Below, in pieces: positions 1,377-53,731 of a DNA stretch of 64,000 nt. A program made the translations under genes and the position numbers. Every line of letters begins with the position of its first letter. The stretch's first letter is position 1. Source of the stretch: Centroscyllium fabricii (taxonomy: Eukaryota); the NCBI GenBank assembly GCA_051313645.2, contig JBNRSN020000003.1:251472001-251536000 (forward strand), in the 5' to 3' direction. The notes under the pieces are model-generated. The model ran no database searches, was not told where the DNA came from, and was given only the letters and a program-made list of their open reading frames with translations.

Positions 1377-1398
1377 ATTTTATTCGCTAAATTTCATC

Positions 1399-2301: not shown

Positions 2302-2399
2302 CCATCTTGGTACCAGGCCCCAGACCCCTCAACCGACTCGACCGACCCGATACTGGCTTCAATCACCCTCGACCAGAGCAGGAGCCAACCACTCAGCAA

Positions 2400-10891: not shown

Positions 10892-11570
10892 CACTCGGGT
10901 GTCACCAGACTTGCCCACTTCGTTAGATCCCGTAGCCTCCCCTACTCCATCACGGAGATCAAGGCTATGACCCGAGAGTGCCCTGTTTACACCGAGTGCA
11001 AACCCCAATTTTTCCGGCCAGACACGGTGCACCTCATTAAAGCCACCCGCCCCTTTGAACGTCTAAGCGAGGGCTTCAAAGGCCCCCTCCCCTCCACCGA
11101 CCGCAACTCGTACTTCCTCACAGTCGTAGACGAGTTCTCCCGCTTCCCCTTCGCCTTCCCCTGCCCAGATATGATGAGCGCAACGGTGATAAAACACTTC
11201 ACCACGCTGTTCGCCATTTTCGGTCTCCCCAGCTACATTCATAGCGACCGAGGGTCATCGTTCATGAGCGATGAACTGCGCCAGTTTCTGCTCCAGAAAG
11301 GGGTTTCCTCGAGCAGAACGACCAGTTACAACCCCCGGGGGAACGGCCAGGTAGAAAGGGAGAATGGGATCATCTGGAAGGCGGTCTCCCTGGCTCTGAA
11401 GTCCAGAGGCCTTCCAGTGTCCCATTGGCAGGCAGTCCTCCCAGACGCGCTGCACTCGATACGCTCTCTGCTATGTACGGCCACCAACGCCACCCCTCAT
11501 GATTTAATGTTTTCCTTTCCCAGGAAGTCGACTTCAGGGACGGCTCTTCCACTATGGCTCACGACACTGG
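10892..11570 (+). pseudogene. Integrase of element C
   Basis: VVDEFSRFPFA, IHSDRGSSF, NPRGNGQVEREN; lies beyond a premature stop. Confidence 0.88.
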
Positions 11571-11674
11571 GCTACAAAACATTTCTAGCTCAATGCGTTG
11601 AAAACATGTTTGTGAAGCGAAAAATCAGCAAAGAAAGTTTGGGGGCTCATCAAAGTGTTCACACTCCTCACTAC

Positions 11675-12080
11675 TACTATCAGATGTCTCGAATTTAAAA
11701 TCTCAATTTTGTGTTCAAATCACTCCATGGCCTTGCCCCTCTCTATCTCGGTAAACACCTTCAGCCCTACAACCCTCCGAGATCTCTGCTCTACTCCAAT
11801 TCTTGCCTCTTGCGCGGCCTTGATTGATTTCCTTCACTCCACCATTGGCGGCCGTGCCTTCAGCTGCCTGGGGCATAAGTTCTGGAATTCCCTCCCTAGA
11901 CCTCTCCATCTCTGTACCTCTCTCTTCTTCTTTAAGATGCTCCTTTAAACCTACCTCTTTGACCAAGGTTTCGGTCACCTTTCCTAATATCTCTTTATAT
12001 GGCTCGGTGTCAAAAATTTTTGTTAACATCTTGGAACTTTTCACTACATTGAAGGCGACATGTAAATGCAAATTGTTGTC
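11675..12080 (+). mobile_element. L2-type LINE 3' fragment
   Basis: ..FKI..GGRAFS....WNSLP..L..S...FK..L C-terminal RT motif, then a ..TAAATGCAAATTGTTG tail. Confidence 0.7.
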
Positions 12081-24327: not shown

Positions 24328-26144
24328 TGTGAAGGAATAGCCATATTCAGAAAAATTCACCATCCTATGAAATATTCTGGCTTTAAAACATAACAAACTG
24401 GGCTTGGAAATTTGGAAGCCTCAACAATTTAAAGCTGTGAACAGCATACAGGCTTTTGAGATAAGATAAGTTGTTGACACTGAGACAATAGCCTTATTGA
24501 AGTAGAAGATTAGAGGTTCCAGGAAGTCTGCACCTTGGAAAGAACATAATGATATATACCCTGTTTACGTGTTTTAAACCAACACTTTGGAAAGAAACAC
24601 ATAAATTAAAGAAACATATTCCTTTGTAAAAATAACATCAAATGAAACACAGAGACAGGAGTCTGTAATATAACCAGTCGAGGTGTTCTAAATGCAAAAG
24701 ATACAACAGAAAACCTTGATAAGAATGACATCAACTAGATACATCTGCTCCACATTGTTTTTAGGATAAGCTTTGAACATCTAAAGGCAGAGACACAAGT
24801 CTGCTTGCTACAAGCTGATCTTACAGTAAGCGTAGCAGTGGTCAACAGAAACATTACTATAGATAATTAGCTTACATCAGCAGAAAACTTCAAAGGATAT
24901 ACAGGGACACAGCCCTGTATCCGGAAACCTCGGGGCCTGGCGGGTATTGGTTTTCGGATAATTTTGTTTTTTAGAGTTGGACCAGTGAGCATGCGCATTT
25001 CCGTGTTTGTGGCTCAGTTCGCAGTCGGAATATATATGAAATATCCATGAAAATAACTTTACCAAAGATGACATTTATCAACATACAACGATGGTCCTTT
25101 TTCAATTACTTTTAAACAAAGCGCGGAATCGTAGAGATAGGTACTGATTCTCCCACGGGCCCGGGAATATAGGCAATTCATTCAGAGGAAAATCCATGTT
25201 GTACCTTGGTGGAAAGATTACACAAGTGAAACTGCGGGTTGTGGTGAGCAGGATCGGTGATGCGGGCTGCACGGCTGGGACAATCGTTGCCAGGGAGATG
25301 CATAGCCTCAGCTCACATGGCGCGAGTACGCACGCTCTACAAGCGGGAACGGCATATCGGCCACAACAACAGAAAACGCTGGAGAAACTCAGCAGGCCAG
25401 GCAGCATTGGTGGAGAGAGGAGCAGAGTTGACGTTTCAGGCATGTCGGCCATTTGGAACAGGTGATCGCCCGTTTTTTTCCTGCTGTGGAGGTGCCGGTG
25501 TTGGACTGGGGTGGACAAATGTAAGAAGTCACACAACACCAGGTTATAGTCCAACAGTTTTATTTGAAATCACAAGCTTTTGGAGCACTGCTCCTTCCTC
25601 AGCACGGCATCAACAGCACAAACTCAAGGTAAAAACATATTTTTTCTGCTGCAGCTGGTCACTTCCTTCAATTTATTTAAGAAAAGAATGGTTATTTTGG
25701 CGCAACCCTGGACTTCGGTTTTTGGAGCTTTTCGGTTTTTGGAGTTGCGGATAAAGGATTGTGTACCTGTACCACGGCACAAACAGTATAAAAATTGGAC
25801 TTTCAAATGGGAAGACAGATTTGCTTGAAGGGGCAAAGCGATTCTCAGGCTTCAGAGGCAAGCTCTGTAAGTCTTTAACTCTTTGTATCTCGGAGATCAA
25901 GGTACTTGTATTTGATTTTGGTGGATATCCTGGAATAAGTTTAAGAAATGTAAAAATCTGGAGGATGGTAACATCTTCAGTCTGTTCCTTTCCTTTAGGC
26001 AGAGATAGTCTGGACCTTTAGCCCCAATTAAGCATCTTAAAGAATTCAGCTACCTCTAACTTTAGTTGAAAGTGAACGTCTGGGGAATACACCTGATCTG
26101 GGGTAGCCTGAAAGGGGCTAGGACTAGTAATAATTCCTTTCACA
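24328..26144 (+). repeat. Solo LTR of the foamy-like ERV family, with internal deletions and a MITE insertion
   Basis: TGTGAAGGAATAGCCATATTC ... AATTCCTTTCACA. Colinear with the reverse complement of 45004-46463. TATA at 25787, GTAAGT at 25867. No clean TSD. Confidence 0.8.
24902..25769. mobile_element. Tc1/mariner (Tigger/pogo-like) MITE carrying Penelope end fragments
   Basis: TA-CAGGGACACAGCCCTGTATCCG ... CGGATAAAGGATTGTGTACCTG-TA. The empty site is visible in the other LTR copy at about 45672. Internal 25370-25605 matches the Penelope ends at 7200-7290 and 57240-57320. Confidence 0.8.
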
Positions 26145-30872: not shown

Positions 30873-30919
30873 TTTGCTTTCCTCTTTTTCACTACATAGG
30901 TTCCTAGCCCCCTGCCATA

Positions 30920-31866
30920 CTAGTTTAAATGCTCCCGAACTGCTTTAGCAAATATTACCCCGAGAACATCAGTTCCATCTCTGCATAGGTGTAGACCGTC
31001 CCTTTTGTATAGGTCACACCTCCCACAGAACTGGTTCCAATGCCTCAAAAATTTAAAACCCTCCCTCTTACACCACTGCTCAAGCCACGTATTCAGCCTC
31101 TCTATCCTGCTCTCTGTATTCTGACTAGCACGTGGCACTGGTAGTAATCCAGAGATTACTACCTTCGAGGTCCTACTTTTCAGCTTAGCTCCTAGCTCCC
31201 TAAATTCTGCTTGTAGGACCTCCTCCCTTTTTTTGGCTACATCGTTGGTACCAACATGTACCACGACAACTGGCTGTTCCCCCTCCCCCCCCCCAGAATT
31301 TTCTGTACCCTCTCCGAGACATCCTTGACCCTTGCACCAGGGAGGCAATATACCATCCTGGAGTCTCGGTCGCGGCCACAGAAACTCCTATCTATTCCCC
31401 TTACGATTGAGTCCCCTATCACTATAGCCCTGCCACTCTTTTTCCCGCCCTTCTTTGCAGCAGAGCCAGTCATGGTGCCATGAGTCTGGCAGCTGGTGCC
31501 TTCCCCTGATGAGTCATCTCCCCCAACAGTACCTAAAACGGTGAACCTGTTTCGAAGGGAGATAACCGCAGGGGATTCCTGCACTACCTTCCTGCCCTTG
31601 TTCCGCCTTTTGGTCACCCATGCCCTGTCTACACTGGACTTTACCTGCGGTGTGACCAACTCACTGAATGTGCTATCCACAACCATCTCAGACTCGTGGA
31701 TGCTCCAAAGTGAGTCCATCCGCCGCTCAAGGGACACCATGCGGTCCCTCAGGAGCTGCAGCTGGACACACTTCCCGCACACATAGTTGTCAGGGACACC
31801 GGAAGTGTCCCTGATTTCCCACATGGCACAGGAGGAGCATGACACAGGTCTGAGCTGTCCTACCAT
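30920..31866 (-). CDS. CR1 ORF1: zinc finger/coiled coil plus SGNH esterase, frameshifted in a homopolymer run at about 31280-31294
   Basis: CSSC..CGKC; IGDS; LPGA; VHVGTND; DGLH. Confidence 0.9.
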
Positions 31867-33502: not shown

Positions 33503-33710
33503 GTAGCAGCCTGCTTGCATTGCTCGCAATAAGGAGCTCCTGGGTTCGAATCATGCTTGCCCCGGGACCTCTCTGCGTAGAGTTTGCATGTTCTCCCCGT
33601 GTTCGTGTGGGTTTCCTCCGGGTACTCCGCTTTCCTCCCACGACCCAAAGACATGCAGGTTAGGTGAATTGGAGATACTAAAAATTGCCCATGAGTATGT
33701 GTGTGAGACA
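33503..33710 (+). mobile_element. V-SINE
   Basis: GGGTTCGAATC B-box; V-domain GAGTTTGCATGTTCTCCCCGTG..GTGGGTTTCCTCCGGG..TTTCCTCCCAC..CCAAAGACATGCAGGTTAGG. Confidence 0.85.
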
Positions 33711-33739
33711 TAGTTCTTGAGCTGGGGGTGTCGGGGGAT

Positions 33740-36700
33740 ATGCACTTTGGAGTGCTGGCAGGCAATGCAGGAGCTGGCCCAGGCGCGGACGTCTTTGCGC
33801 AGGCCGCGCCATACGAACCGGGCCGAGATAAGTTTGATGGACGCGCGGGTGCTGGGGTGGGACAGGTCATGGAGGGTCTTGAATATGTGTCGCCTCCAAG
33901 CGTGGGGGACGACGGGCCTGGGCTGCGGCAGGGATACGTCGCAGCAGACGACGGAGGCAGCGGGGCCGTGCGCAATATTGGCCAAGTGGAGGCCAGGGAG
34001 ATTTGCTGCTGAGTTGAGCAGGTCGGGGTCGGCCAGCTGGTCTGCGGCCAGCTGGGCGTAATCGAACACCATTTGGGCGGCGTTAATGGTGGGGCGTGAG
34101 AGGCAGTTGGCGACCACGTTGTCGCGGCCGGAGATATGCTGGATGTCGGTCGTAAATTCCGACACGGCCGCGAGTTGGCGCTGCTGCCTGGCCGACCAGG
34201 GTTTGGCGAACTTAGCCATCGCAAACATGAGTGGCTTATGGTCGACGAAGGCTGTGAAGTGGCGGCCCTCCAGGAGGAAGCGAAAATGACGCACTGCCAG
34301 ATGGAGAGCGAGGAGCTCCCTATCGAAGGCGCTGTACTTAACCTCTGGGGGCCGGAGTTGCCTGCTGAAAAAGGCCAGGGGCTGCCACGAGTTGCCGGTC
34401 CACTGCTCAAATACGGCCCCGACCGCGTGGTCGGAGGCGTCGGTGGTGAGGGCTACTCTGGCATTGGGCCTAGGGTGGGCTAGGAGGGTGGCGTTACCCA
34501 GGGCGGTTTTAGTTGCGGTGAAGGCGGTGGCGGCGTCTGCTGTCCACTCAACCGCAGCCTTGTTGGACTGCCCGCGGGTGGCCTGGTATAAGGGGGCCAT
34601 GAGAGCGGCTGCTCCCGGGATAAAGCGTTTATAAAAATTGACCTTCCCCAGAAATTCCTGCAGCCCTTTAATGGAGTGCGGGCGGGGGAATTCTTGTACC
34701 GCCTGCACCTTGGAGGGCAGGGGTATGGCCCCGGTTTGGGAAATGCGGTGGCAGAGGAAGTCAATGGTTTTGAGGCCGAATTTGCACTTGGTAGGGCTTA
34801 ATATGAGGCCGTGTTCGGCCAGGCGCTGGAACAGGGTCCTGAGGTGCAGGAGGTGTTCCTGGGGGGAGATGCTGGCCACGAGGATGTCGTCTAAATAGAC
34901 GAAAATGAACTTCAAGTCCCGTAGGACCGAGTCCATGAGGCGCTGGAAGGCCTGGGCCGCGTTTTTAAGGCCGAAGGGCATCCTGAGGAACTCGAAGAGC
35001 CCGAAGGGAGTGATGACGGCCGTTTTAGGAATGTCCGCCGGGTGCACCGGAACCTGGTGGTAGCCACGCACCAGGTCGATCTTGGAGAAGATCGTACAGC
35101 CCGCTAGTCTGGCGGAAAAATCCTGGATGTGGGGTACGGGGTACCTATCCGGGGTAGTGGCGTTGTTAAGGTGGCGGTAGTCGCCGTAGGGGCGTCAACC
35201 CCCGTCTGGCTTGGGGGCTATGTGGAGAGGAGAGGCCCAGGGGCTGTTGGAGCGCCGGATTATGCCAAGTTGCTCCATGGTGCGGAACTCGGTGCGCGCG
35301 ATCTCCTGTTTAGCCGGGTCGAGCCTACGGGCGTGGGCATGGACGGGAGGGCCTGTGGTAGTAATAAAGTGTTCTACCCTGTGTTTGGCCTGGCGGGCGG
35401 TGAACGTGGGGTTGGTTAGGGCGGGGAACTCTGCAAGGAGTGTGCCGTAGGCATCCGAGTTCCGAGAGCGGCATTGGGCGGCCGCGTGGACCTGGAGTGC
35501 GGGCCCTGTGAAGCATGGGATGGTCGACATGTTATTCATGTTGACCAAGCGGCGCCGGGTCATATCGACCAGCAGGCCGTAGGCGCAGAGGAAATCTGCC
35601 CCGAGGAGGGGTGAGGTGACCTGGGCTGTGACAAAGTCCCAGGTGTACGTGTGGCTTGCGAGCGTAATCGTGAGCTTGCGGGTGCCGTACGTTTTGATAT
35701 TGGAGCCGTTGGCCGCTGCGAGTGGCGGGCCCCGGGTGCCTTGTTTGGTTTCTGCAGGGGAGGCTGGCACGATGCTGTGCTGTGCGCCTGTGTCGCAGAG
35801 AAATTGGAGGCCTGTGCCGCTGTCTGTAACAAAGAGCAGTGCTCATGTGTGTCCTACAGACATAGTGGGGGCTGAGGTGGGCCGTGGCTTGAATGCGCAT
35901 GGCTGGACGCAGCGGTGCGCTTTACTATCAAATCGCGTGTGGTAGTAGCACCAGCCGGTTCTAGAGGGACGCGGTTGCCTGGGTGGGCGCGGGGACCTAG
36001 GTTCAGGCATGAGGTTGGGCCTAGGGGGCGATTGGTTGCGCTCTACCGATGCGGAGTTAGGGTCGCACGTGGTTGAGCTGGTGCGCTGCGCCTCCATGAG
36101 CCTGTCGGCTTCCTCAGCGAGCTCATCGTCGCTCCGTTGGCCAAGGGCCGCCAAGGCCGGTCTGATGGAGCGGGGCAGTTTAAGGAGGAAGACGGTGCGG
36201 AGCAGGGAGGCGGGATTGGCTGTAAGCGCTTGCATCTGACCTAAGAGTTCCGATGGGTCTGCGTCCCCGAGTTCGGGGAGGTCAAGGAGCTGGCAGTCGC
36301 GCTCAAATTGAGAGGGGGTAAAAAAAATTATAAGCGCGGCCTTAAGGGATTCGTACCTGCCTGTAGTGGGCACACGCTGTATTTTTGACCACATCCGATC
36401 GATCGTCGATTGCGGTAGGGCTGAGAACACCAGGTTGTAGCGGTCGTCCCCCTGGATGCCATGTGTGCGGCAGCTGGTCTCGATGCACATAAACCAGGCC
36501 GCTGGCCGTTGCTCCCAGAACTCCGGTAGAGTTAGTCTGTGTCCGAAGTTCTGGCCAAGTCCTTGGGTTCGTGGAGCTTGGTTCCTTGCTCTTGCCATGT
36601 TTTCTGTTTTAAAATGTTCTTTGGCTGGTGATCCTTGATCCTGCGGCAGCTTTTTTTCTTTGGAAGTCGTTCCAATTCGGGGTCACCACTGTAGCGCCAG

Positions 36701-37127: not shown

Positions 37128-38181
37128 ATGGGAGCCATTATCTTCCTTCCCTTCTTGGAATTACATGATCTCTACTAGGAGCAGATGCGGCTACAGCAGC
37201 AACAGCAGCAGCCACACCAGGAGCCACCTCACCAGCAGCAGCCACACCAGGAGCCTGATGCTCCTCCGGACCCTCCGGGGGCAGCATGGGCCAGAAGGCA
37301 TCGGCGCATCCAAGGCCATCACCGCAGAAGATACCCCCCAAACAGGGTCTACAGAGTCCGAGCCACCTACCTCAATATGAGTGAGCGGCGGTGCCAAAGG
37401 CGACTCCGACTTTCCCAAGAGGCAGTCACAGACATCTGCGCCATGCTGCAGCAAGAGCTGGAGCCCAGGACACCAGGTAGACATGCCTTACCAGTGGCCC
37501 TCAAAGTCACCACCGCACTCAACCTCTTTGCCTTGGGCTCATTCCAGGGATCAGCAGCCGACATCAGCGGAATCTCCCAGTCGGCTGCACACTCCTGCAT
37601 CACCCAGGTAACCGGTGCCCTCTTTGCCCGTGCCCACAATTTCATCCATTTTACCATGGATCGCGCAAGTGTGAGGGCCCGAGCGATTGGAATGGCTCAT
37701 CTGGCAGGCTTCCCAAGGGTACAGGGCATCATTGACTGCACACATGTGGCCCTTAGGGCACCCAACAACAACCCAGTAGCTTTTCTCAACCGCAAGGGCT
37801 TCCATTCACTCAATGTTCAACTGGTGTGTGACCACAACAAGGAGATTTTGCATGTGTGTGCCAGGTACCCTGGCAACTGCCATGACTCCTTTGTCCTGCG
37901 CCAATCAACCTTGCCTACGCTCTTCACACCGCCGGACCAGCTTCCGGGGTGGCTACTTGGTGACAAGGGCTATCCCCTCAGGACTTGGCTCATGACGCTG
38001 GTCAGGAGGCCAGCTAATGAGGCTGAGGAGAACTACAACTCCACACACATCTCCACCAGAAGCATTATAGAGCACACCATCGGTGGTTTGCTGTCAACTT
38101 CCCAACATGGCCCAGCGCCGTGGCTTGCAACCTCCTGACCAAGACCTGCCTCCTCGCATACCGTCCTCAGGTGAGGAGGAG

Positions 38182-38216
<35 letters not shown>

Positions 38217-38340
38217 GGAGGAGGTAGAGGAGGATGAGGATGGGGTTGCTGCCGCTCGACCCCAGCCAGCGCCACCATTACGCGAGAACGTTGCTGGCCG
38301 GCAAGCAAGGATGGAGCTCATCCTTGCAAGATTTTATTAG
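37128..38340 (+). pseudogene. Harbinger DDE transposase (HARBI1 family)
   Basis: [53 protein letters not shown]. Early stop at 37176, a deletion/frameshift near 38080, and an acidic C-terminus. Confidence 0.92.
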
Positions 38341-39799
38341 CCTACTCAAGCCAGCTTGTGCTACTCTCCTCATCCTAACAGCGCATCCTCACTGACACAC
38401 TCCAATCAGTTCCACAGCTCATACCTGCATGAGTCCCACTACTGTAACGACATCTGTGTGCCGGGGGGGGCGGTTTGGGGGAGTGAGCTTCTGGGGCTGC
38501 CAAGTGCCTGTGACTGCTTTCTGCACTTGCGCATGCACCCACGCCCCTGACGCACCACACATTTCTTTGATGCACATGGTCCCATCCAAACATCCATCCA
38601 TCCATCACATGCAATAATGAACACAGAAACAATAAAGGTTGCAATTGCAACATGCTGTTTAGTAATGACATTAAGCAAACATGGCCACATGCATGGTTGT
38701 TCAACTGATGACCAGCACTTAGGAATCACTGCATTAATGATGTCCCAGGCATCTCAGCTGAAGACATGCAGGTTCAAACGGTCAAAATGTCATTATCAGC
38801 AATGCTGAACCTCAGCCAGTCCAGTTTTGAGCTTGCAAGTTCATATCCATTGTCAATCATGTTCCCCACCTCTCACGTGGCGCCCCTCCCTTTTCAAGAG
38901 TGACACATTCTGACAAACCATTGACTCTGCTGTGGGGGTCACAGTGAAACCGGGTCCCTGATCAGCCAATCGAAACGTACATCCCCCCGAAGGTTGTCAA
39001 CGCCTTCATTTGAAAAACGGAGAACAATAGCAACCATATATAGAAAAATTATACAAGCGCTGTCGGGTTTCTTTATGCGGGTGGGTCTGCTGTGTTTCCA
39101 AATGTCCTGGAGGTGCTTCAGGGCAATGCATCCGGACATGAGGCAGGAGCTGTGGAGGGCGCTGAGGGTCAATGTCTGGTGGGTCTTCACCCTCCTGACC
39201 TTGTTTGATGTGTGAGAGCTGAGGCATGATGGCACCATGGCTCCTTGACCATTCCATCAGGGTCAGGTGCTGTGAGGGGCCAGCTGCAGCCAGATGATGT
39301 TGGATGCGTGGGTACTTTGGCCAGTTGGCCCATCTTTTCTTTGCCCACCTCCATCCTTTTAAAGTTTTGTTCGTGTTAAAGTTCAACCTTGAGGCATGTT
39401 TGCTGGTGTTGCGAAAACATTAGGTGGTTTGTTCAGTTAAATTGGTCATCGTTTGGACCACACATCATTCATACAGTCCCTCTGTTCGCTGGTGTGCGTC
39501 ACCATGAAGGTAGGCCGATTTCAAGGAGCTTCACTCTTAACCATTGAGCTACAGTCTGTTATTGAACCTCATGCGTCTTGCTGTAAGTCCTTCGGCCATG
39601 TTGCATCTCCATCATTGCATATCTGTGAGGCCTGCCCGATTGCTGTCCAGCCTGCATAAGGCTTCAATGTGGAAGAGCCATTCGCAAGATGTCAGACATG
39701 ACAACTGCATCAGGTGGCACCTGGAGTGGTCTGCTGTCTGCCACAGCTATGGACACCTAAATGTCTGTTACACTAACACCCAAGTGACTCCCGTTGTGC

Positions 39800-41781
39800 C
39801 TAAGGGTGCTTAAGTTTTCTTTTGCGAGTGCTCCTACGTGTCGGTGGCCCTGTGGTGTCAGAAGATGTGGAGGCCCCCTGCTGAGTGCCCTGCTGCTCCT
39901 GTCTGGACACCTTTGGCGGTCGTACTCTGGGCCGGTGAGCCTGTGGGGGCTCGCTACCAGTCTGCTGCTCCTGCGGCTGGGCAGGGTATGAGACATCCAT
40001 CTCAGGTGCATGGGGACTCCGGCGGGCCTCTGACCGAGGGCTTTGCAGTGGTGTGGATGTGGGAGTGCTTGGAGAGGAGCCCCCACTTCCTTCAGCTGCA
40101 CCACCAACCTCCCTCACATGGGTCACCTCCCCCTCAGCACCAGCAAGTGGCTGGACAGCACCTTGCTGCACTTCACGGGGGCCATAGGGACCCGTTTCTG
40201 CAGTGGAAGTCCTACTGAGAGCGACTTCCACGAAGGTCTGGTTCCTCTGCTCAATAGATGCCACTCGCTACTCAAGAGATGTGAATCTATTGTGGACAGT
40301 GCCCATGTCTTCGAAAGGCTGGCGACTTATGTGCTCGATGGCTGTGGCCATCCTCTCCTCCACGGTCGTTATCCTTTCCATGGTGGTTGCCATCCTTTCC
40401 ATGGTGATGCGATCATGCACCACTGACTCCGCAAAAGAGCTTCTCATGCTTGCAACAGACTCCTCCATTCGCATGACACTCGCAGCTACCTGGGAGACAA
40501 AACCTGTCAGAGACGCCTGCATCTGTGTCTGGCGTCCCATCATGTGTCTTCTGCCTGATGGATCCAAAGGTGCTGGGTCGACATGCAGCTTAGCTAAACT
40601 GGCAGAGTCCTGCGTCCTCCGACTAAGACTCTGCAATGCTGTCCCTGTCTCCACAATCTGCTGAGGCTCACTTGTGTTGTGTGAATCACACGGTGACAAG
40701 TCAGATGTAGCTCTAGGGGGGCCCACCGAGGTGCTAATAGCTGCGCTGGTGCCGGGTGGAGTCTGTGGTGCTGACAGTGCACCCTCAGGTTCCTCTGAGG
40801 ACTGAACAGGGGCGACCTCGTCGTCAGATCTGCTTGTCCGTCCAGCTGCGGATGGGCCTGTGGGGCAGTAAAGGAAGAGGTTAGAGATATGTCAGCAAGG
40901 TTACATACAGATAGCATTCAGGAGCTGAGCAGAGCTGCCTCTGCAGTGCTTTTACATTCATCGTGCCAGTCTCATGTGTTAGTTCTGAGAGAAAAAATGA
41001 AACCATGCTGTCACCAGCTTGAGATTGCATGCCTGCCTCGCTGTCATCCACTCCCGGGGCTTGCCCCTCACCAACGAGGTCTAGAACAGCCTCCTCCCAG
41101 GTGGTGAGCTGTTGGATGGTGGGGGGTCCTCCTCCAGTCCCGGCGCTGTGCCGCTTGTTGGAGGCTGTCTTTTCCTGCATTGAGGGAGAGAAGTAGAGGT
41201 TGAGTGAGAAGGAAGGAGTTGGTGCAGCGAGTGACCAGCAAAGTTTGTTGGAGGGTGACAAAGATGCAGTGAGCCTGCAAGACCAAAGGCCCTCCCTGTG
41301 TGTTGCCAGATGTACAGCAAGCATGAGAGTGAGAGGGAGTGTGAGGGCTGAATGGAGGGAAAGGACCGTGAGTGTGAGCATAGATAGAGAGGGAATGGGT
41401 AAGGTTGCTTGGATGTGATGGGCAAGTGGGATGTGCAGGAAGGGAGTGGTGAAGATAAGTTGTGGTGAGGAGAGGTGAGGGGGATGAGATTGAGGGTGAG
41501 GGGAAATGAATACTTACTTTTGCAGTGCAATGAAGGTCATGCAATCTCTTGCGACACTGGAGCCAGGATCGGGGTGTTGCACCCAATGAGCTGACCTCCT
41601 CAGCCACCTGCTGCCATGCAGCCTTGGTCTGTGAGGGAGGTCTCTTCCTCCCTGAGGAGGGGAAGAGAACCTCCCTATGGGTCGTTGCCCCCTCGAGTAA
41701 TGCGTCGAGGGAGGCGTCATCAAATTTGGGGGCGGGTCGTCCCCTCGCGCTGCCCGATGCAGCACCCTCACGCTCTGCCAT
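39800..41781 (-). pseudogene. Harbinger Myb/SANT (trihelix) DNA-binding protein, three exons (41781-41518, 41174-41015, 40857-39800)
   Basis: PKF..ASLDALL...W..VA..VS....R.W.QCRKR..DL; GT-AG junctions; TGGGPP; coiled coil; C-terminal RRSTRKRK; in-frame stop at about 40268. Confidence 0.85.
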
Positions 41782-42169
41782 CCTACTGAAGGCTTGTAGA
41801 ATGCTGAGCAGTGCGGGAGGCGAGCTGTGTTCATTAAAAGAAACCTGAATTCTGACGTCATACTGTGCGACTTTCTGACTGGAAATTGGTGATTGAGAAG
41901 GCTTCCCACAGGCGGGGAATTAATTTGGTACTTAGACAAAAATCTCGTGGGAAACGCAGGCACTTTATCGGGCGGGACAAAACCCCGCCCCGACCAATCC
42001 CCGCCATTCTGGGAAAATTCCGGTCAATGAAACAACTTTCACAACATTGAACTTGAAGATCTCTTCAGCACAACAGCAAACACAGTACTTATGATCTCAT
42101 AATTAGTATTTTCCACCTTACTTTAATAAAAAAATAATCCTTGCCGTCATTGTAGAATTTGTTTCACCC

Positions 42170-45003
42170 ACCTGAAGCTGCACAGGCCAGAAGGCGCCAG
42201 CGCATGGAAGCACATCGCTGCAGGAGATACCCCCAAAACAGGGGTTACAGACAGGATGAGCTACCTCAACATGACTGAGCAGCAGTGCAAAAGGAGGCTT
42301 AGATGTGGAGGTGCCAGTGTTGGACTGGGCTTAGACCTTCGCGAGAGGTAGTGGGTGACACCTGCGCAATGCTGCAGCAAGACCTGGAGCCCAGAGGAAC
42401 GGGTGGACACCCCTTACCAGTGACCGTCAAAGTCACCACTGCACTCAATTTCTTTGCTTCAGGCTCATTCCAGGGATCAACAGCAGACATCAGCAGCATC
42501 TCCCAGGCGGCCGCACACACTTGCACCATGCAGGTAACCAATGCCCTTTTTTCCATCGTGCACAATTACATCAACTTCTCCAAGGATCAAGCAAGTATAA
42601 CTGCGCATGTGGTTGGACTTGCTAATCTGCCAGGCTTTCCAAGGGTGCAGGGCATCATTGACTGCACACATGTGGCCCTTAATCCAGGCATTTTTGTCAA
42701 CCACAAGGGCTTCCACTCGCTCAACGTGCAGCTGGTGTGTGACCACAAGTAGGGAATTTTGCATATTTGCACCAAATACCCTGGCAGTTGCCATTACTCC
42801 TTCATCCTGCACCAGCCTAGTGTGCCTCCGCTCTTCAGTCTGCCAGACCAACTTTTCGGATAGCTACTTGGAGACAAGGGCTATCCCCTGAAGACATGGC
42901 TAATGACAGCATTCAATAGGCCATTCAATGAAGCTGAGCAGCACTACAACTCCAGCCACATTTCCACCAGATCCATAATCGAGCAAACCATCGGCTTGCT
43001 GAAGATGCGATTCAGATGCCTTGATAGATCAAGTTGAGCCCTGCAGTACTCAGCAGCCAGCGCCTCCAGAATCATCGTGCTCTGCTGTGCACTTCACAAC
43101 ATGTAACAGCATCGTGGCTTGCAGCTGCCTGAGGTACAAGTGACTCATCGCATAGCCTCCGAAGATGAGGAGGTGGAGGAGGAGAAGGAGAGTGACAACA
43201 AACAGCTTGCAGAGGCGCATCAACCAGTGCCAGCAGCACACAAGCAAACTGCTGCCCTGGATGCAAGGGACACACTCATTTTGGCCAGATTTGCTTAGCA
43301 TATCCAATCAAACACTTTTGCCTTGCACCTGCTTACCAGAGCATCAACAATGGACAAGAACCTATGGATTCCTATCACTCTGACCACCATACTGACAATT
43401 GCAAGTTGCCCTAAGCCCTCAATGTGGAAGTCCCATTTGCAAAATTACACAGGCCACAACTTCAGCAGTTTGCCATCAAGTCTTTTTTATCACAAACTCA
43501 CAGATGGCTTTTCAAAAATAAACACAACGGAACAACCACGTGACTACCCTTGTGGCTACTTGTGCTTTATCTTCCTCTTACGTGTGCTCCTACATAATGC
43601 TTCCCCTGTGGCTTCAGCAGATTTGGAGGCCCCTTGCTCACTTCCCTGCTGCTCCTGCCTTGACACCTTTAGCGGGCGTCCTCTGGGGTTGTAAGCCCAT
43701 GAGGGCTCGGCAACAGTCTGCTGCTCCTGCGGCTGTGCAGGGGCTGAGACGCCGATCTCAGTTGGGTGAGGACTGTGGTGGAGCTCTGCAGTGGCATGGT
43801 CATGTGAGCACAAGGAGGGGAGTCCCCACTTCCTTGTTCACTGCCACCAACATCCCCCTCATGGGTCAGCCCCACTTCAGAGCTAGCAAGTGACTTGACA
43901 GCACCTTGCTGCTCTTCAGGGGCGCCATGAGGATCTATTGCTGCACTGGCAGTCCTATTCCAGAGGACTTGCCTGAAGCTCTGGTTTCTCTGCTCAATAG
44001 CTGCTCATTGCTCCTTAAGAGATGTCAGTCCATTCTGAACAATTACCATGTTTTCAATACCCTGGAGACTACGTTCCTCCATGACCGAAGCATTCCTTTC
44101 CTCTACCGTAGCCATCCTCTCCTCTATGGTAGCCAGACTTACCACGGAGGTAGACATCCTTTCCACGGAGGTTTCTATTCTTTCTCTGGTGATGAGTTGA
44201 TATGCCAATGCCTCCACAAAGGCCCTGCTCATGTTCATGATGGACTCCCCCACTCTCTCCACACTCATAGTGACCCTGGAGGCAAAACTTGCCAGAGACT
44301 CCTGCATCTGTTCCTGAAGTTGCAACACCGCTCTCGTTCTGGATGGACCCGGAGGCACAGGGTCAACATGCAGCGGCGCCGAGCTGGGAGAGTCCGATGA
44401 GAACTCTCCACTGCTGTTCCTGTCTCCACCATCTGCTGATGCTCAAATATGAGCTGTGATGGTCCAGGTGACTACTCTACTCTATTTCCAGAAGGTCCCA
44501 CTGATGTGTGAGTGACTTTGCTGGTGTTGGGTCCGCTGAATTCTGCTGACGCTATGCCCTCAGAGGTTTCAGCTTCCTCTGAGGAGTCTGTTGGCTCAGC
44601 TGTTCCTCCTGGACAGTGGGGAGGGAGGCTGTTGATGGTCCTGTGGGGGAATAAAGGAAAGAGGTAGACATGTGAGATAAATGTTGCATGCACATTGAAT
44701 TGTGCAGATGATCATAAGTCAATCTGTCAGAGCATCAGAATTAATATGAGTCACTCATGCAATGTCAATGAGAGAGATGAAAAATTATTCTGTCAGCAAT
44801 TTGCTCTGATGCACCCATCTGTCCATCCCCCACTTGCGCTTCCTCCTCCACTCCCATGATATGCAGGGCCACCTCCTCTGCAGTGGTGTGCTGGGCTATT
44901 GAAGGTGGTCTCCTCCTGTCCTTGCCCACTCCCTCTTATTGTGGGCACTCTTTCCCTGCAATGAGGGACACAAGTGGAGTTTGAGTGAAAATGAAGGAGT
45001 GAG
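42170..45003. mobile_element. PIF/Harbinger transposon 2, decayed (transposase about 42200-43299 +, Myb gene 43556-44960 -)
   Basis: [33 protein letters not shown] with stops; HNKREWARTGG and RSTRKRKIK. Cut in the Myb intron by the foamy-like LTR. Confidence 0.88.
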
Positions 45004-46463
45004 TGTGAAGGGATAATTACAAGTCCTAATCCTTTTCAGGCTACCCCAGATCAGATGTATTCCCCAGACATTCACCTTCAACTAAAGTTAGAGATAGCCG
45101 AATTCTATAAGATGCTTAATTGGGTCTAAAGGTCCAGGCTATCTCTTTCTAAAGGAAAGGCATGATGTAAAGATGTTACTGTCTTCCAGATAGCACTTTT
45201 AATAAGTTTAACTAGACTGTAACCTTCTGGATATTATGAGGGTCTGGAAACCCCCATCATGAGAACACTACAACTCCTTACAAAAGATTGTACAGAAATT
45301 GACTTTGTGAGTTTGTTACAGAAGTGCTCTGTGAGACAATTCTAAAAATATATAGATTTATTTAAGAGCCGACATGCAGTTAACAGCTGTTGAGTCAATC
45401 GCAACATTAACAGTTCAAAATACAAATTGCTTACATTTCTTATTCTCAGAGATCCTTATTCTCAAATCTTAATTTCATACATTTTTACATTTCTATTATT
45501 CTTAATCCAGAATATCCAGCAAAATCAAATAAGAGTACCTTTTTGATCCCTGAGCCTTAAAGAATTAAAAACTTACAGAGCGTGCCTCTGAAATTAAGAA
45601 TCGCTTGCCCTTTCCAGCGACCTCTGACTTTCCATCTGAAAAGCTCTATTTTTATACCTTTTTTTAGTGGTTTATCCTTTAAAGTTTTCTGCTGATGAAA
45701 GCTAATTATCTCTCATCATCCTCTGTTGAATTATTTTCTAATCTTATTATCAATTTAGCTGTTGACTCTCGGAATCCTGTCTGCTGTATAAGCGTTTCAA
45801 AACTTATCATACAAAACAATATGACAGTAGTATTTATTTGATGGCATTCTTATCGAAGGTCTTCCATACAATTCTAAAATCACTTCTGCTGTTTGAAAGC
45901 AGACGTCATGTTTACTAACTGTTCCATTTTTAATACAAACACAATGTAATTGCTTGGTGTATCTATTGAAGTAATATCTGCAAAGTCTTCAGTAGGTATC
46001 ATATTTACAACATGTAAATCAGATCCACTTCAACCAGGGTGTTTGTTGCATTTATTAGCTACTTCAAATGGTTGCATATATAATCGTGCTTCCTGTTTCT
46101 CATTTGATGTTACTTTTACAAAGGCACATGGTTTTTTAATATTCTGTGATTCTGTTCGAAGTGTTAGTTTTTAACACTTTACTTGGGCATTGCTATTATT
46201 TTGTTTCCAATGTTCAGGCATAGAGGAACCTCCAACTCTTTGCTGCAATAGGGCTTAGCATTAACAATCAATTCCCATTTCAAAAGCTTGTGTGGTGTTT
46301 AAAGCTTTAGTGTTAACACTTCATTTTATCTCAGAAGCCTGTGTTGACAGCCTGTGTCACCGAGGCTTTCCAGACTTTTAAACCCAATATGTCATGTATT
46401 AATAATATCAGAAATGTGTTCATAAGTTAGTGTATCTCCTGGAATATGGCTTTTTCCTTTACA
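45004..46463 (-). repeat. 3' LTR of the foamy-like element
   Basis: TG..CA with short terminal inverted repeat; TATAAAA at 45656; GTAAGT at 45576; AATAAA at about 45362; homologous to 24328-26144. Confidence 0.82.
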
Positions 46464-47090
46464 CCGCCCTCTTGACCAAAGGATGAGCTCATAACATCTG
46501 GGAAGAGTTTGGTCAATGATACTAATAAGGTTACGATAGCATATTAATTTCATGAGATGCACAATCATATGCTACATCAAAATTACTTTGAAGTCATCCT
46601 GGGACAACGTTTTGCCTTATTTTAAATTGAACACAATTTAGGAGGATGATAAGTACATAGGCTTGTTAAGAGCGAAACAACATGTACTTAGAATGTCCAA
46701 TCGGCAGATGTACGTTCCATAGAGGTGAGTTATTCATACGAGTCAAGGAGACGTCAGTTGAACTAGTTGAAGCTTGACACGCTAACCCTTCGATCCGGCA
46801 TATGTACAGATGCGCATTGTCGTAAAGGTCTTGCCAGGCACTCAGTTGATTCCTTCTTCATCCGTTGTGTCTTCCTCCTTCGTTGAAGTAACTCATTGAT
46901 CTTTCCTTGTTTCGGTCATTGTTTTTCACAAATCGAATTGCTGATGCGTTGCCAAGCAACGTGTGGACGAGCCGGCGACACCATCTGACTGACCGTCGTC
47001 AGTAATTCGATCGCATCCATTTCCTGTGTCGTGCTCCAAACTGGGTCTTTAAAGACAGTGTACGACTGCACCTTGTATTGTTCCTCCTTT

Positions 47091-47790
47091 TCAGTATCCT
47101 GCAGGACATCTTTTGATATTGTCTATGGAGACAGTTTTAAGAATATGCTTGCCATTCAACTGGTTAATATGCATTTGAACTGTTCTTTTGTTAATAACAG
47201 CGTGTATTTTAACAGGTTTTTTCCACTTCAGTCTTAAACCAGGTTTCTGCTTGAGCTTCTTTTCCTGGACCCATTCTCCTACTATGGGTTGCCATGCTTT
47301 ATTTGTCAATTATTTCTGCCTATTTGCTATCCTTATCCTCTGATCAATTTGCCAAATCTCCTTTGTTACTTCTTTTTTTTTCTTTTTCTAACTGTCGCTG
47401 TTGGGTCAAGGACTCAGAGTGTGTAGAGGCAATAAAAGAACTATGGATAAGCGGTGCATGCACCTCAACCCCATGCATCAGATAATATGGAGTTTATGGG
47501 GAAACTGTCCCTGATACAGATGTGAGCACATTATTGAGTGATAGCTGCACCTCCGGAATGATGGTGGTCCACTTAAACCCCTGATTCTCAACAGTTTGAC
47601 CAATAGCTTTTTTCCTTCCAAGTTTTCACATTCCACCAGCCCTGCTGATTGCGGATGACGTGCCGTGCTGTGCACCAAGCCAATCCCCGTTTGATCGCAG
47701 TAGCCTTTGAAGACCTTTGATACAAAGGCTCTGCCTTTATCAGAGTGTAAGATTTTGGCTGCAGTAATTGTTGTGTTTGTACCTTTCTAC
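47091..47790 (-). pseudogene. Foamy-type integrase (core and C-terminal domain), frameshifted
   Basis: KILHSDKGRAFVS..G..HSTARHPQSAGLVE.EN..KKLLVKLL..KWTTIIPEVQLSLNN..TPYYLMHG and WQPIVGEWVQEK..LRLKWKKP..VINKRTV..TVSIDNIK. Confidence 0.87.
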
Positions 47791-48573
47791 ACAACTACAT
47801 AAAATAATAAAGCAGCAGAGACTGAGAGCAACTTCAAGAGGTCTTTACTGGTTAACTGGAACTGCAGTACTGATGATACAAATCATGTGGTCTAACATAG
47901 AAAATAAGAGCAGGAGTAGGCCATTCAGCCCTTTGAGCCTGCTCTGCCATTCAATTAGATCATGACTGATCTTTCAGATTCAGTACCCTATCCCTGCCTT
48001 CTCCCCATATCCCTTTATCCCTTCAGCCTGAAGAAATATATCCAACTCCTTCTTGAATATATTTAGTGAACCGGCCTCCACCGCCCTCTGTGGCAGAGAA
48101 TTCCACAGGTTCACCACTCTCTGGGTGAAGAAATTCCCCCTCCTCTCAGTCCTAAATGGCTTTCCCCTTATCCTTAGACTATGGCCCCTGGTTCTAGATT
48201 CCCCTTTCATCAGAAACATCCTTCCTGCATTCAGTCTGTCCAGGCCTGAAAGAATGTTATAGGTTTCGATGAGATACCCTCTCAATCATCTGAACTCCAG
48301 TGAGTATAAGCCCAATCAACTCAATCTCTCCCCATACGTCATTCCTGCCATCCCAGGTATCAGCCTGGTGAATCTTTGCTGCACTCCTTCAATGGCAAGA
48401 ACGTCTTTCATCAGATGAGACGACCAAAACTGCACAGAATACTCGAAATGTGATCTCACCAATGTCCTGTAGAGCTGCAGCAAGACATCCTTGTTCTTAT
48501 ATTCGAACCCTCGTGCTACGAAGGCCAACATACCATTTGCCTTCTAAACCTCCTGTTGCACCTGCATGCTTAC

Positions 48574-48802
48574 TGTAATGATATTGAGACTTCCGGCAGG
48601 AAATCGGATGAACTCTGCTTATGAACTTCCAGTGACATCACGTCCTGTACATGTCACTTCCTGTGTAGTAGTATAAATTCTGCTACTATTCAGTCTGAGA
48701 TAATGCTTCTCTATGTAAATATGTTAAAACTCTCAAATCTGTAAATAGCTGATTAAAGCTTTGCTTAAGGTATTTGATGTGTAAGTCACTTTTGTCAGAT
48801 CA
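48574..48802 (+). repeat. Solo LTR related to element D, inside CR1 copy 2
   Basis: TGTAATGATATTG..AGATCA; TSD CTTAC on both sides; shares GTACATGTCACTTCCTGTG, TATAAA and GATTAAA with the D LTR. Confidence 0.9.
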
Positions 48803-49972
48803 CTTACCTTCAGTGACTGGTGCACAAGAACACCCAGATCTCTTTACACTTCCCCATCTCCCAATCTATTGCCATTCAAATAATTATCTGCCCTCACATT
48901 TATCCACATTATAGTGCATTTGCCATGTATCTGCCCAATCCCCCATCCTGTCCAAACTGCATTGGAGTTTCTCGACATCCTCCTCACAGCATACCCTCCC
49001 ACCCAGCTTTGTGTCGTCTGCAAATTTAGAGATATTACATCCAATTCCCTCATTCAGATCATTCATATATATTGTGAACAGCTGGGGTCCTGGGACCGAT
49101 CCTTGCGGTACCCCACTAGTCACTGCCCGCCACTCAGAAAATGACCCGTTTATTCCAACTCTCTGTTTTCTATCTGCCAACCAGTTCTCTATCCAAGCCA
49201 ATACCTTGCCCCCAATACCATGAGCCTTAATTTTGCATGCTAATCTCTTATGAGGGACCTTATCGAAAGCTTTCTGAAAGTCCAAATACACGACGTCTAC
49301 TGGTTCTCCCCTATCTGTTTTACCAGTTACATCCTCAAAAAAATCCAGTAGATTAGTCAAGCACGATTTACCTTTTGTAAATCCATGTTGACTCTGTCCG
49401 ATACTGTCACTGTTTTTCAAGTGTACTGCTATTACATCTTTAATAATGGACTCCAGCATTTTCCCCACTACCGATGTCAGGCTTACTGGTCTATAATTTC
49501 CCACTTTTTCTCTACCCCCTTTTTTGAATAGTGGGGTAACAATAGCTACTTTCCAATCCATGGGCACTGTTCCAGAGTCTATCGAGTTCTGGAAATTGAT
49601 CAGCAATGCATCTGCTCTCTCCAGAGCCACTTCCTTAAGTACCCTAGGATGTAGATTATCAGGCCCTGGGGATTTGTCGGCCTTCAATCCCTTCAACTTC
49701 CCCAACACCATATCCCTGCAAATATTGATTTTATCAGTTCCTCCCTCTCATTAGTCCCTGTGTTTCCCAACATCTCTGGGAGGTTATTTGTGTCCTTCTT
49801 TGTGAAGGCAGAACCAAAATATGTATTTAATTGGTCTTCCAGTTCCTTGTTCCCCATTATATATTCCCCTGACTCGGACTGCAAGGGACCAATGCTTGAT
49901 TCCACTAATCTTTTCCTCTAAACATATCTATAAAAGCTTTTGCAGTCAGTTTTTATGTTCGCCGCAAGCTTA

Positions 49973-50375
49973 CATAGAAACATAGAAGATAGGAGCAGGA
50001 GTAGGCCATTCGGCCCTTCGCGCCGGCTCCGCCATTCAATGAGATCATGGCTGATCATCCAAACCCAGTAACCTGTCCCTGCCTTCTCCCCATATCCCTT
50101 GATCCCTATCGCGCCTGCACCGGCACATATCCCACCCTATCCCCGTAACCTCACATATTCAATCCCCCTAACACTAAGGGTCAATTTATCCTGGCTAATC
50201 AACCTAACCCGCACATCTTTGGACTGTGGGAGGAAACCGGAGCACCTGGAGGAAACCCACGCAGACACGGGGAGAATGTACAAACTCCACACAGATAGTA
50301 CCCGAGGCTGGATCTGAACCCGGGTCTCTAGTGCTGTGAGGCAACAGTGCTAACCACTATGCCACCGTGCCGCCC
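49973..50375 (-). mobile_element. HE1-like V-SINE with a CR1-derived 3' tail
   Basis: Head GGGCGGCACGGTGGCATAGTGGTTAGC..CCCGGGTTCAGATCC, V-domain, tail nearly identical to the CR1 3' UTR; splits CR1 copy 2. Confidence 0.9.
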
Positions 50376-51534
50376 TTTCATAATCTATTTTCCCCCTCTT
50401 AATGAATCCCTTTGCTGTATCCTAAGCTGCTCCCAATCTTCAGGTCTGTTGCTTTTTTTGGCCAATTTATATGCCCTCTCTTTGGATTTTATGTTATCTC
50501 TAATTTCCCTTGTTATCCACAATTGAGTCACCTTTTTTGGTTTATTTTTATGCCAAAATGGTATAAACAAGTTCTGTAATTCTTCCATTCGATCTTTGAA
50601 TGTTTGCCATCGTCCATCCACCGTCAACCCCCGAGCGACACCACCCAATCAATACTACCCAACTCGCGTCTGATACCATCATAGTTCCCTTTACTTAAAT
50701 TCAGGACCTTAGTCTCTGAGTCAATTTCTTCAATTTCCATCTTAAGTGAGAATTCGATCATATTATGATCGCTCCGACCACAGGGGCCTCGCACAACAAG
50801 ATTGCTAATTAATCCTTTCTCATTGCATAATACCCAGTCTAAGATTGCCTGATCCCGAGTTGGTTCCTCGACATATTGGTCCAGGAAATCATCTTGTATA
50901 CACTCCAGGAATTCCTCCTCCACAGTATTGTTACTGATTTGGTTAGTCCAATCTATATGTAGATTAAAGTCACCCATGATGACTGCTGTGCCCTTATTGC
51001 TTGCTTCCCTGATTTCCCTTTTTATGCCATCCCCAACCTCAGCATTACTGTTTCGGGGTCTATACACCTCTTCCACTAATGTTTTCTGCCCTTTTGTATT
51101 TCTCAGTTTGACCCATACAGATTCCACATCATCAGAGCCAATGTCTTTCCTTACAATTGTGTTAATCCCCTCTTTAACCAGCAATGCTACCCCACCTCCC
51201 TTTCCTTTTTGCCTATCTTTCCTGAATATTGAATACCCCTGGATGTTGAGGTCCCAGTCCTGGTCACCCTGGAGCCATGTTTCCGTAATTCCAATCATAT
51301 CATATCCGTTAACCTCTATTTGCGCTGCTAATTCATCCACCTTGTTACGAATGCTCCTTGCATTGAGACACAAAGCCTTCAGGCTTGTTTTTCTAATGCT
51401 CTTAGACCTTTTAGAATTATTATTTACTATGGCCATGTTTTATTTCCACCCTTGATTTCTCTGACTGCCACCTTTGTTTCTCTCCTTCCTGTCTTTTGCT
51501 TCTATCCTTGTTTCCCTTTCCTTAGTCTCCCTGC

Positions 51535-52238
51535 TACTTGCTGTCAAGGCAGTGCCAAGAAGGTTCACTAGGTTAATTCCGGGGATGAGGGGGCTGACAT
51601 ATGATGAGAGGCTGAGTAGATTGGGCCTCTACTCATTGGAGTTCAGAAGAATGAGAGTCGATCTTATTGAAACATATAAGATTGTGAGAGGGCTTGATCG
51701 GGTGGATGCGATGAGGATGTTCCCAATGGTGGGTGAAACTAGGACTAGGGGGCATAATCTTAAAATAAGGGGTTGCCATTTCAAAACTGAGATGAGGAGA
51801 AACTTCTTCACTCAGAGGGTGGTGGGGCTGTGGAATTTGCTGCCCCAGAGAGCTGTGGAAGCTACAACATTGAATAAATTTAAAACAGAGATAGACAGTT
51901 TCCTGGAAGTAAAGGGAATTAGGTGTTATGGTGAGCGAGCAGGTAAGTGGACGTGAGGCTAGGTTCAGATCGGCCATGTGATCTCCTGGACCAGTTTTTG
52001 ATCGCCTAGATGGGTCGGAGAGGAATTTCCCAGATTTTTTCTCCCAAATTGGCCACTGGGTTTTTTATCTGGTTTTTCACCTCTCCCGGGTGATCACATG
52101 GGTTTGGGCGGGATGGAAAGTAAAAATAAAATTGAGGTTAGGATCAGATCAGCCATGATCTTGTTGAATGGCGGAGCAGGCTCGAGGGGCCGATTGGCCT
52201 ACACCTGCTCCTATTTCTTATGTTCTTATGTTCTTATG
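51535..52238 (+). mobile_element. 5'-truncated CR1 3' fragment
   Basis: RRFTRLIPG..DLIETYKI..TRGH..RNFFTQRVV..WN; (TTCTTATG)n tail. Confidence 0.9.
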
Positions 52239-53731
52239 ACCCGCTTGTCCTCCGCAGTCAGGCCATCAGGGATCGATGACCCACTCTCCCTCTGGGCAAC
52301 ACGCTTTGGAGCTGCCCTCCCCGCCTTGCTTTGCAGCACCCCGCTGGGGCCTGGAGCACCCTACACCTCCCACCACTCGTCACTCCCCTGCATGGAAGGC
52401 GGCCTCCCCCTGTCTCCATGGCCTTCGTCGGCAGATGGTGGCCGTCCTGCTGCTTCTTCCTCTTCCTCCTCCTGGCCTTCTGACTCTGTCTCCTGGGAAT
52501 GTTGAGGGGCCACCACCTCAGCTGATGATTCACCATCTGAAACAACAGAGGTACAAGACTGAGTTTAGCGTGAGGACAAGGTGGTAGTGTGAGGACAAGG
52601 TGGCAGCAAGGGGGCAATGAGTGCAGGCACTGACTTCTTTGGATGGAAAGTGCAAAGGCTGCTGTTGTGAGGAGCAAGAGGAAGGAGAGAGGAGAGGAAG
52701 ATCGGCAGAATGGTGTCGGCATCTCCTGTGGCGACAGGAGCACTCAGGCAGTTGCCCATAATCCACTGCACGCACACTTCCAGGGGACTTAGCTCCACCA
52801 GATCAGGTGGACCGCCACCCGTGCGGTCTTGCTCACGTCGGTTGTGAGCCAGTTTCGCCTGCAAGGAAAAGGACAGAATCTGAGTTACAGGACAGCAAGT
52901 ATTTAATCTGAAGTGCCTGCTATGGCTGAATAGCCCTTACTGCATGCAAAGTGTCTTTCAGGAAAAGCCTATGCAAAACCCTGCAGCAACAGGCTGTTCA
53001 AGGACAGTGACCCTGAGGAATATTATGTTCTTGCTGAGTGTTCTGCATTGGGGATTTAGAACCCTCTGGCCATACAGTTACGTTGAGATGGAGAGATATA
53101 CAAAAATATACTCACCCTGACACCCGTAGTGAGGTCGTTGAATTTTTGTCAGCACTGATAGAGGGTCCTGGGCACCATGCTCTGGCTGCTGAAATGGCAA
53201 ACCACTTCCCTCCACAGTCACCTGCACTCCTGTGGCACAGGTTTCCTGCCACTTTCAGCAAACAAAATGGCTCTGCGAGCCTCCACTGCAGTGAGCAGGG
53301 CCTTCAAGGCCCTGTCACTAAATCTTTCAGCCCTCTCCCTGGGACGCCTCTCCATTTTATCAACGTTGGGGCACAGGTGTGGCCACAGCAGCAGTCAGAG
53401 AGGAAGTCAGCAGGATGTGCCTGGAATCGGAGGAAGTCCCTCCCCCTTTAAGAGCTGGCCGGCGCCAGCGTGTCTGGCCAGCCGCTGACTCACAGATGAA
53501 GCGCTGCGCCCGTGCTGCACCCGCGCTCGCCGCTAGCATCGCCGCTAGCATCTGCCTTTTCGCCGTTTGCACCCTAAGAGTGCTGTGCAGTGCCTGATTT
53601 AGTTCTGCAATCTCCTACCAGGGCGCAAAAGCCAAATATTGCGGAGCCGGGTGCAGCTTTGCACCCAGCGCTAATTTTAGCGCTACGCCCACTTTACCAC
53701 CCGGAAACGTGCACGACCCAATTTTTCCCCC
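52239..53731 (-). mobile_element. Harbinger 3 fragment: terminus plus Myb/SANT pseudogene (exon 1 53355-53116, exon 2 from 52858)
   Basis: MERRPRERAERFSDRALKALL..QC*QKFNDL|AKLAHNRREQDRTGGGPP, with the same intron position as Harbinger 1; terminal CAATTTTTCCCC. Confidence 0.8.

Follow-up and report, generated by a model that had tools for sequence, protein, structure and literature searches.

The locus raises the question whether an integrase of foamy type, followed almost directly by a polypurine tract (PPT), marks one damaged provirus or a whole lineage that multiplied without env. The window analysed here, a stretch of 64,000 nucleotides from Centroscyllium fabricii, carries on its minus strand the 3' end of a decayed member of a large and old family of foamy-like endogenous retroviruses (ERVs), which we call family A.

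Layout of the window copy and foamy identity of family A

On the minus strand, the integrase (IN) extends from its core to the C-terminal SH3 domain at 47093..47763 (PF00665 weak; PF18103 SH3_11, E 2.5e-10) and is interrupted by stops and frameshifts. It is followed by the Pol C-terminal tail (46842..47092), where the pol frame of the family stops at 46844-46842, then by the PPT (46464..46473), a purine run and then TG found at the same place in other copies, and by the adjoining 3' LTR (45006..46463), which is 1458 bp long, is bounded by TG...CA and matches a solo LTR end to end. The 5' LTR copies at other loci have the identical end point, after which the PBS follows, and the longest open run in the LTR of the window copy is about 75 codons. 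The element sequence 5' of 47763 is missing from the window, which holds no further internal family A sequence. Just upstream of the integrase fragment, and outside the element, sits CR1-type LINE sequence (47890..51439, minus strand; ORFs with endonuclease and RT motifs), an 82-84% repeat of the LINE at 27969-30944. The latter is a CR1-type LINE ORF2 on the minus strand, open for 991 aa. A solo LTR of family A, broken by an insertion, was found by blastn at 24328..26142 on the plus strand.

The original prediction held that no env lies between integrase and PPT, and this was borne out: a foamy-type integrase, a short spacer, the PPT and the LTR follow one another, and no env-sized ORF was seen. 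The measures that came with it need revision. The stop at 47093, taken for the end of IN, occurs in 13/70 copies, the pol frame stops at 46844 in 63/70, and the alignment to the PFV integrase tail runs past 47093. Because the pol frame stops at 46844 and not at 47093, Pol ends at 46842 and the distance from the pol stop to the PPT is ~370 bp instead of the ~630 bp proposed. The stop and motif tallies, here and below, were made on 70 non-duplicate copies, 9 of 79 long matches having been dropped as duplicates.

The RT of family A scored 225 bits against primate foamy Pol, 80 against Ty3 and 72 against MLV-type RT, and it is ~44% identical to primate foamy RT as counted on the alignment. Gag_FV_central (PF20672) matched above cut-off in two of the four gag fragments scanned, which came from other family A copies; fragments of other copies also matched the RT, RNase H and IN zinc finger profiles. 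PFV integrase was the only PDB match for the family A IN, and a search of longer proteins with this IN returned no hit at 1e-20, which is a weak negative. Both outer ends were read in a single copy, which has an exact 4-bp target-site duplication; the flanks agree at 3/4 bases at the window solo LTR and at 2/4 at a second solo LTR, and a GGGTG-like motif was seen at the PPT/LTR border of many family A copies. Both the 4-bp duplication and the GGGTG-like border are described as features of foamy-like ERVs in the available part of PMC5210030. Judged by the sequences of its Gag, RT and IN, family A is a foamy-like ERV. It is not a foamy virus proper (Spumaretrovirinae) by env and tas/bet: env (LP-SU-TM), which in foamy viruses also contains an internal promoter, is missing, and with only ~370 bp separating the pol stop from the PPT no tas/bet-sized ORF was found there.

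A gag stop is common to 48/50 copies, and pol appears to continue after it in the same frame (L125 ~1574; L050 ~4546, oriented coordinates), an arrangement with which read-through and a separate pol mRNA may both be compatible. About ten copies carry a TGG-initial motif directly after the 5' LTR, and the PBS may resemble the Lys type (tRNA-Lys1,2). Of two copies scanned, one has a weak Aegerolysin match in the N-terminal part of Gag that does not reach the cut-off (L033:5024-5455; E 7e-4) and is probably due to chance.

Foamy viruses (PFV/SFV) and the foamy-like ERVs known from fish and amphibians (FLERVs: AciFLERV, DrFV, NviFLERV, CoeEFV) share with family A the Gag central domain, RT, RNase H and an IN with SH3 tail, as well as a long LTR, a 4-bp target duplication and a purine run with TG at the PPT/LTR border. 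Full-length FLERVs, however, carry env and accessory genes according to the available parts of the reports (PMC5210030, PMC5512871, bioRxiv 2020.12.18.423569), whereas family A has one fixed env-less junction and a non-autonomous RT-deleted sublineage.

Recurrence of the junction and absence of env

The 7.2-billion-base genome was searched at the DNA level with the integrase-spacer-PPT junction, and 40 of 1655 candidates were scored; the first-look candidate counts of 1655 and 1565 take in LTR words as well and cannot be read as copy numbers. Recurrence of the junction was confirmed at 40/40 scored places (83-89% match), and the stretch equivalent to 47100-46464 measured 618-639 bp in all 30 loci fetched, although in both figures the sample had itself been selected by the junction. 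To offset this bias, two more samples were drawn, one by IN and one by gag. The IN SH3 domain served to select 70 loci out of at least 150 listed, some of which repeat loci of the junction sample or are segmental duplicates. In 33 of the 70 the sequence is contiguous to the PPT, in 14 it resumes after an insertion, and in 23 it is broken off at various points, in most cases by a change to LINE or Gypsy sequence. These 70 loci yielded no env: the best match to the Env query from a second foamy-like family, family B, was an accessory ORF at E 0.43, and Pfam detected no foamy Env when run on the 10 break segments for which repeats account least. The gag-selected sample comprised 40 loci out of at least 135 gag matches in the genome; all 40 belong to family A, and env matches among them numbered 0. 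The IN end could be placed in 12 of these 40 loci (2 contiguous, 5 resumed, 5 broken); for the other 28, the sequence analysed was classed as not including it.

Env loss is thus real and family-wide among the examined copies, with one fixed short pol-to-PPT junction. It is shared by many independent insertions in a family with at least 135 gag-bearing loci. About 150 loci were examined in total; a rare env-bearing member of the family may exist. A deletion specific to the window copy, one of the two readings originally offered, is refuted: the same junction and length recur at 30/30 fetched loci on many contigs, the spacer sequence was matched in sequencing runs of other organisms, and we leave this explanation practically no chance. 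Relatives of the spacer and LTR were found in the public runs X5, X16, X18, X22 and X23 of other organisms, mostly at 80-95% identity, so that the env-less form probably either predates several host species or is common to them.

Open frames in the spacer

Two frames in and around the spacer are open across copies. The longer has 119 codons (47122-46765; 46763..47122 with its end, minus strand), is open by the stop tallies and overlaps the end of pol. Only 2/5000 shuffles stay open as long, and the off frames along ~3.4 kb of pol have no comparable open run, the one 96-codon gap spanning a frameshift of the reference copy. The frame contains the peptide of ~60 codons on which the original prediction had built its accessory exon. 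This peptide is present in the window copy (ORF 46916-47122), but its stop at 46918 occurs in only 4/70 copies, and the frame of the family is the one of 119 codons. An ATG at 47020 stands in good context in 59/70 copies, and another at 47089 in 22/70, mostly of one clade. In the alignment, the latter lies opposite the NGT of the PFV IN tail, the place at which PFV env presumably begins in the overlapping frame; our literature search did not confirm a start of PFV env inside the IN tail. The first env-like ORF of family B likewise starts at the pol end. No membrane helix was predicted in the 119-codon frame. Because this frame sits where env begins, a remnant of env fits better than a novel accessory gene, and the frame is likely the 5' stub of env.

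The second frame, of 82 codons (46841-46594, minus strand; 46594..46841), stays open in 0.3% of shuffles and ends in a hydrophobic C-terminal stretch followed by a short tail. Its best alignment to family B Env falls on the membrane anchor, at a non-significant E of 0.22, and it may represent the 3' end of either env or an accessory gene. The simplest reading of both frames would be an out-of-frame join of two env ends between 46841 and 46765.

The statement that the spacer peptide has no recognised homology was upheld, as profile, protein and PDB searches gave no credible homologue. For the spacer frames nothing significant was found in Pfam, in longer-protein searches (no hit), PDB (none), the Atlas (no usable hit) or comparisons with family B Env (E 0.047-0.24), each of which is a weak negative. 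One hit in the representative library, at E 5.7e-5, was to a tandem-repeat protein and was judged spurious. Selection tests were not significant in any spacer frame, while a same-length IN control was marginal with 70 copies (p=0.02); for synonymous excess the 119-codon frame gave p=0.36 and 0.26, and a positive control of equal length also failed in subsets.

The proposed splicing did not stand up to the comparison of copies. The CCTGCAG motif taken for an acceptor is present in the window copy, but CTGCAG occurs in 8/70 copies and is not preceded by a pyrimidine tract; the acceptor and both stops of the supposed exon are confined to few copies. From two RNA runs of a related organism, 1129 and 2974 reads matched the window stretch with a likeness of at least 80%, and both strands were represented. 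With thin coverage and 101-base reads, which makes the test a weak one, the runs contained no spliced joint on this stretch including the whole LTR and no junction from an LTR donor, and on a copy with leader and gag none besides two 2-read items. The spacer is probably the scar of an env deletion and not a spliced accessory exon.

RT-bearing and RT-deleted copies and the history of the family

Among 100 loci of ~10 kb, RT is kept in 17, and a single deletion of 1.27 kb in RT, with an identical junction, recurs in 28; in the remaining loci the RT region is absent from the sequence or other deletions are present. RT-deleted copies outnumber RT-bearing copies in our samples. Further deletions are nested among the defective loci, namely one of 108 bp in RNase H (23 loci, 15 of them with the RT deletion and 0 RT-bearing) and one of 320 bp near the gag/protease border (7 loci, 0 RT-bearing). 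Since the shared nested deletions occur at separate places, the copying of defective genomes relied on RT provided in trans. The RT-deleted form keeps the 5' leader and gag, PR, RH and IN, and lacks RT only. Many copies start matching 75-89 bp downstream of the RT-deletion junction (L034, L040, L043, L103, L111, L114, L115, L118, L129, L131, L132, L134 and L140), which suggests further shared, larger deletions.

The env-less junction was seen in 13 of the 17 RT-bearing copies. Their pol has a synonymous/nonsynonymous ratio of 44/43 among shared variants, i.e., those in three or more copies with CpG-prone columns left out, versus 237/768 among singletons (p=1.8e-7), and the off-frame control gave p=0.68. 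RT alone was also under purifying selection (p=1.2e-5), whereas RH-IN of the RT-deleted copies showed no selection (p=0.26) and their gag a mild synonymous excess (p=0.016). Only these subset tests were relied on, because the test of RH-IN over all copies also lit up the off-frame control. Pol is under purifying selection among the env-less RT-bearing copies. The shared synonymous variants might date from before env was lost and have been brought in through recombination with a virus that carried env; the copy tree is nearly star-like, which indicates a short internal history.

We consider it fairly probable that family A multiplied by retrotransposition inside germ-line cells and that the spacer is the scar left by the deletion of env. 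Of the second reading originally offered, an env-less lineage that retrotransposes intracellularly, the env-less, multi-copy and foamy-like nature holds, and the spread inside the cell is a plausible deduction to which the purifying selection on pol lends weight. An env-bearing ancestor would have lost nearly all of env together with any accessory genes, so that a 5' env stub overlapping pol and a short piece from the 3' side remained. We infer this deletion and its join point, as no env-bearing family A parent was found among the 70 IN-selected and 40 gag-selected loci. Copies with gag and full pol would then have kept replicating, with pol under the purifying selection described above. The available part of PMC3705263 states that foamy Gag is without a membrane-targeting domain and needs Env to bud, and also that primate foamy virus retrotransposes inside cells, an ability which may be special to PFV according to what is available of PMC3814592. 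With budding dependent on Env, new copies of an env-less element would land in the same cell. Afterwards one copy lost 1.27 kb of RT and gave descendants with the further nested deletions, all of which must have used RT in trans. The parts which they retained, the 5' leader with gag and the 3' region of pol, may be those that foamy viruses need in cis: they correspond to the cis-elements of foamy viruses, among them CAS-II, which the accessible text of PMC5035957 places within ~1.8 kb of 3' pol. All examined copies have since decayed by ~5-9% and are riddled with other transposons.

The same genomes could also have travelled between cells in particles furnished with Env by a co-infecting helper virus, which we regard as unlikely. 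That complementation in trans took place is proven by the RT-deleted copies, a foamy genome can be packaged in trans as long as it retains the CAS elements (available part of PMC5035957), and family B, which is foamy-like and env-bearing, resides in the same genome. Yet no env-bearing helper of family A turned up in the 70 and 40 loci, and budding requires an interaction of Gag with Env (PMC3705263, in the portion available). Family B (at least 47 env matches; loci L051-L060 and L091-L099) is a poor helper candidate because it is distant, with 38% RT identity and no DNA similarity to family A, and younger, its copies being 96-99% identical against 86-93% for the LTR pairs of six family A copies. 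A lineage that never had env, as a primitive sister of the foamy viruses, would account for the lack of env-bearing members and of Env homology in the spacer; we hold it to be very improbable, since the open frame overlaps the pol end and since RT identities of ~44% to primate foamy viruses and 38% to the env-bearing family B do not make family A an outgroup by distance.

That the env-less element still used the 47122-46765 frame as an accessory protein, such as a Gag-binding peptide derived from the Env leader or the product of an acc3-like gene situated between pol and env, appears to us quite improbable. Its 119 codons are open across copies where the off frames of pol have no such run, its ATG at 47020 is widely kept in good context, and fish FLERVs have accessory genes directly after pol in the available descriptions (PMC5210030, PMC5512871). 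An open frame would, however, be expected just as much if the stretch had until recently coded for Env, the proposed acceptor is limited to 8/70 copies with no spliced reads, and no synonymous excess was detected, though at a length at which the positive control failed as well. In its wider form, the history of germ-line retrotransposition after env loss has a virus of the foamy clade turn into a germ-line retrotransposon, autonomous and without env, that reached at least hundreds of copies in related fish and spawned an RT-less parasite mirroring the cis-elements of foamy vectors; in this form it may just as well prove wrong as right. A bolder addition, retention of the Env-leader stub as a peptide that binds Gag, is a long shot.

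Among beta- and gamma-type ERVs, it is well known that elements lose env and then spread in the genome. MusD/ETn and IAP of the mouse, intracellularized betaretroviruses, resemble family A in env loss, high copy number and defective partners that outnumber the autonomous form, as described in the available parts of PMC6466679 and PMC10536682. They differ in being class II and still active, and no coding remnants are left in ETn, while the partner of family A keeps gag, PR, RH and IN. Magiorkinis 2012 is a further reference cited on this mode of spread. The RT-bearing and RT-deleted copies with their nested deletions resemble the MusD/ETn pair, here in a foamy lineage. ERV-L is env-less and only distantly related to spumaviruses. 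Family A is set apart from ERV-L/MaLR by an RT score that is far higher against foamy viruses than against MLV or Ty3 and by matches to foamy-specific Gag and IN profiles; as a spuma-related class III group with a non-autonomous partner, ERV-L/MaLR is otherwise similar (PMC6466679, in part). Among chondrichthyan FLERVs, CmiFLERV of the ghostshark has a foamy-like pol, with pol alone detected (available part of PMC5512871), and ERV-Spuma.0-Sca of the catshark had no Gag or Env domain detected. As far as these accounts are available, they report non-detection and not a conserved env-less junction, selection after the loss or RT-deleted partners. Family A may be identical with one of these elements. 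An env-less ERV with a non-autonomous partner is already known, but for the foamy clade we found no earlier report of an env-less lineage with an RT-less partner in the main texts; the supplements of PMC5512871 and PMC10699275 may contain related shark elements, and the available portions of PMC12690878 and bioRxiv 2021.11.23.469661 added nothing.

If the history proposed for family A is true, the intracellular retrotransposition seen in PFV culture would have operated in a natural germ line, and the spread of an element without a Tas-sized gene would mean that LTRs can evolve activity independent of Tas. The series of nested deletions would be a natural map of the genome parts that a foamy-like element needs in cis, and family A may be the reason that pol alone turned up when cartilaginous fish were surveyed earlier.

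Family B differs in layout, with a single long gag-pol frame and an env apparently split into two ORFs by stops common to all 18 copies aligned. The first env-like ORF (573 aa) has an N-terminal membrane helix, the second (436 aa) has a signal-peptide-like start and matches the TM part of PF03408, and ORFs of 340 aa and ~600 aa without Pfam match follow them. Separately encoded SU and TM would be unusual, and the first ORF could instead be an acc3-like gene. As for the other repeats, a Gypsy-like LTR element lies on the minus strand of the window at 18002-22563, with 219-bp terminal repeats that are 91% alike, and similar elements are found at 1318-5037, 8075-11698 and 33551-36682. Several Harbinger-like remnants (transposase and Myb-like frames, read from motifs; repeats D7, D9, D11 and D13) occupy 37179-44442 and 52000-53500, and the 3' LTR of the window copy terminates within a Harbinger-like transposon remnant. 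At another locus, L107, a reversed solo LTR of family A is inserted in the spacer of another family A copy.
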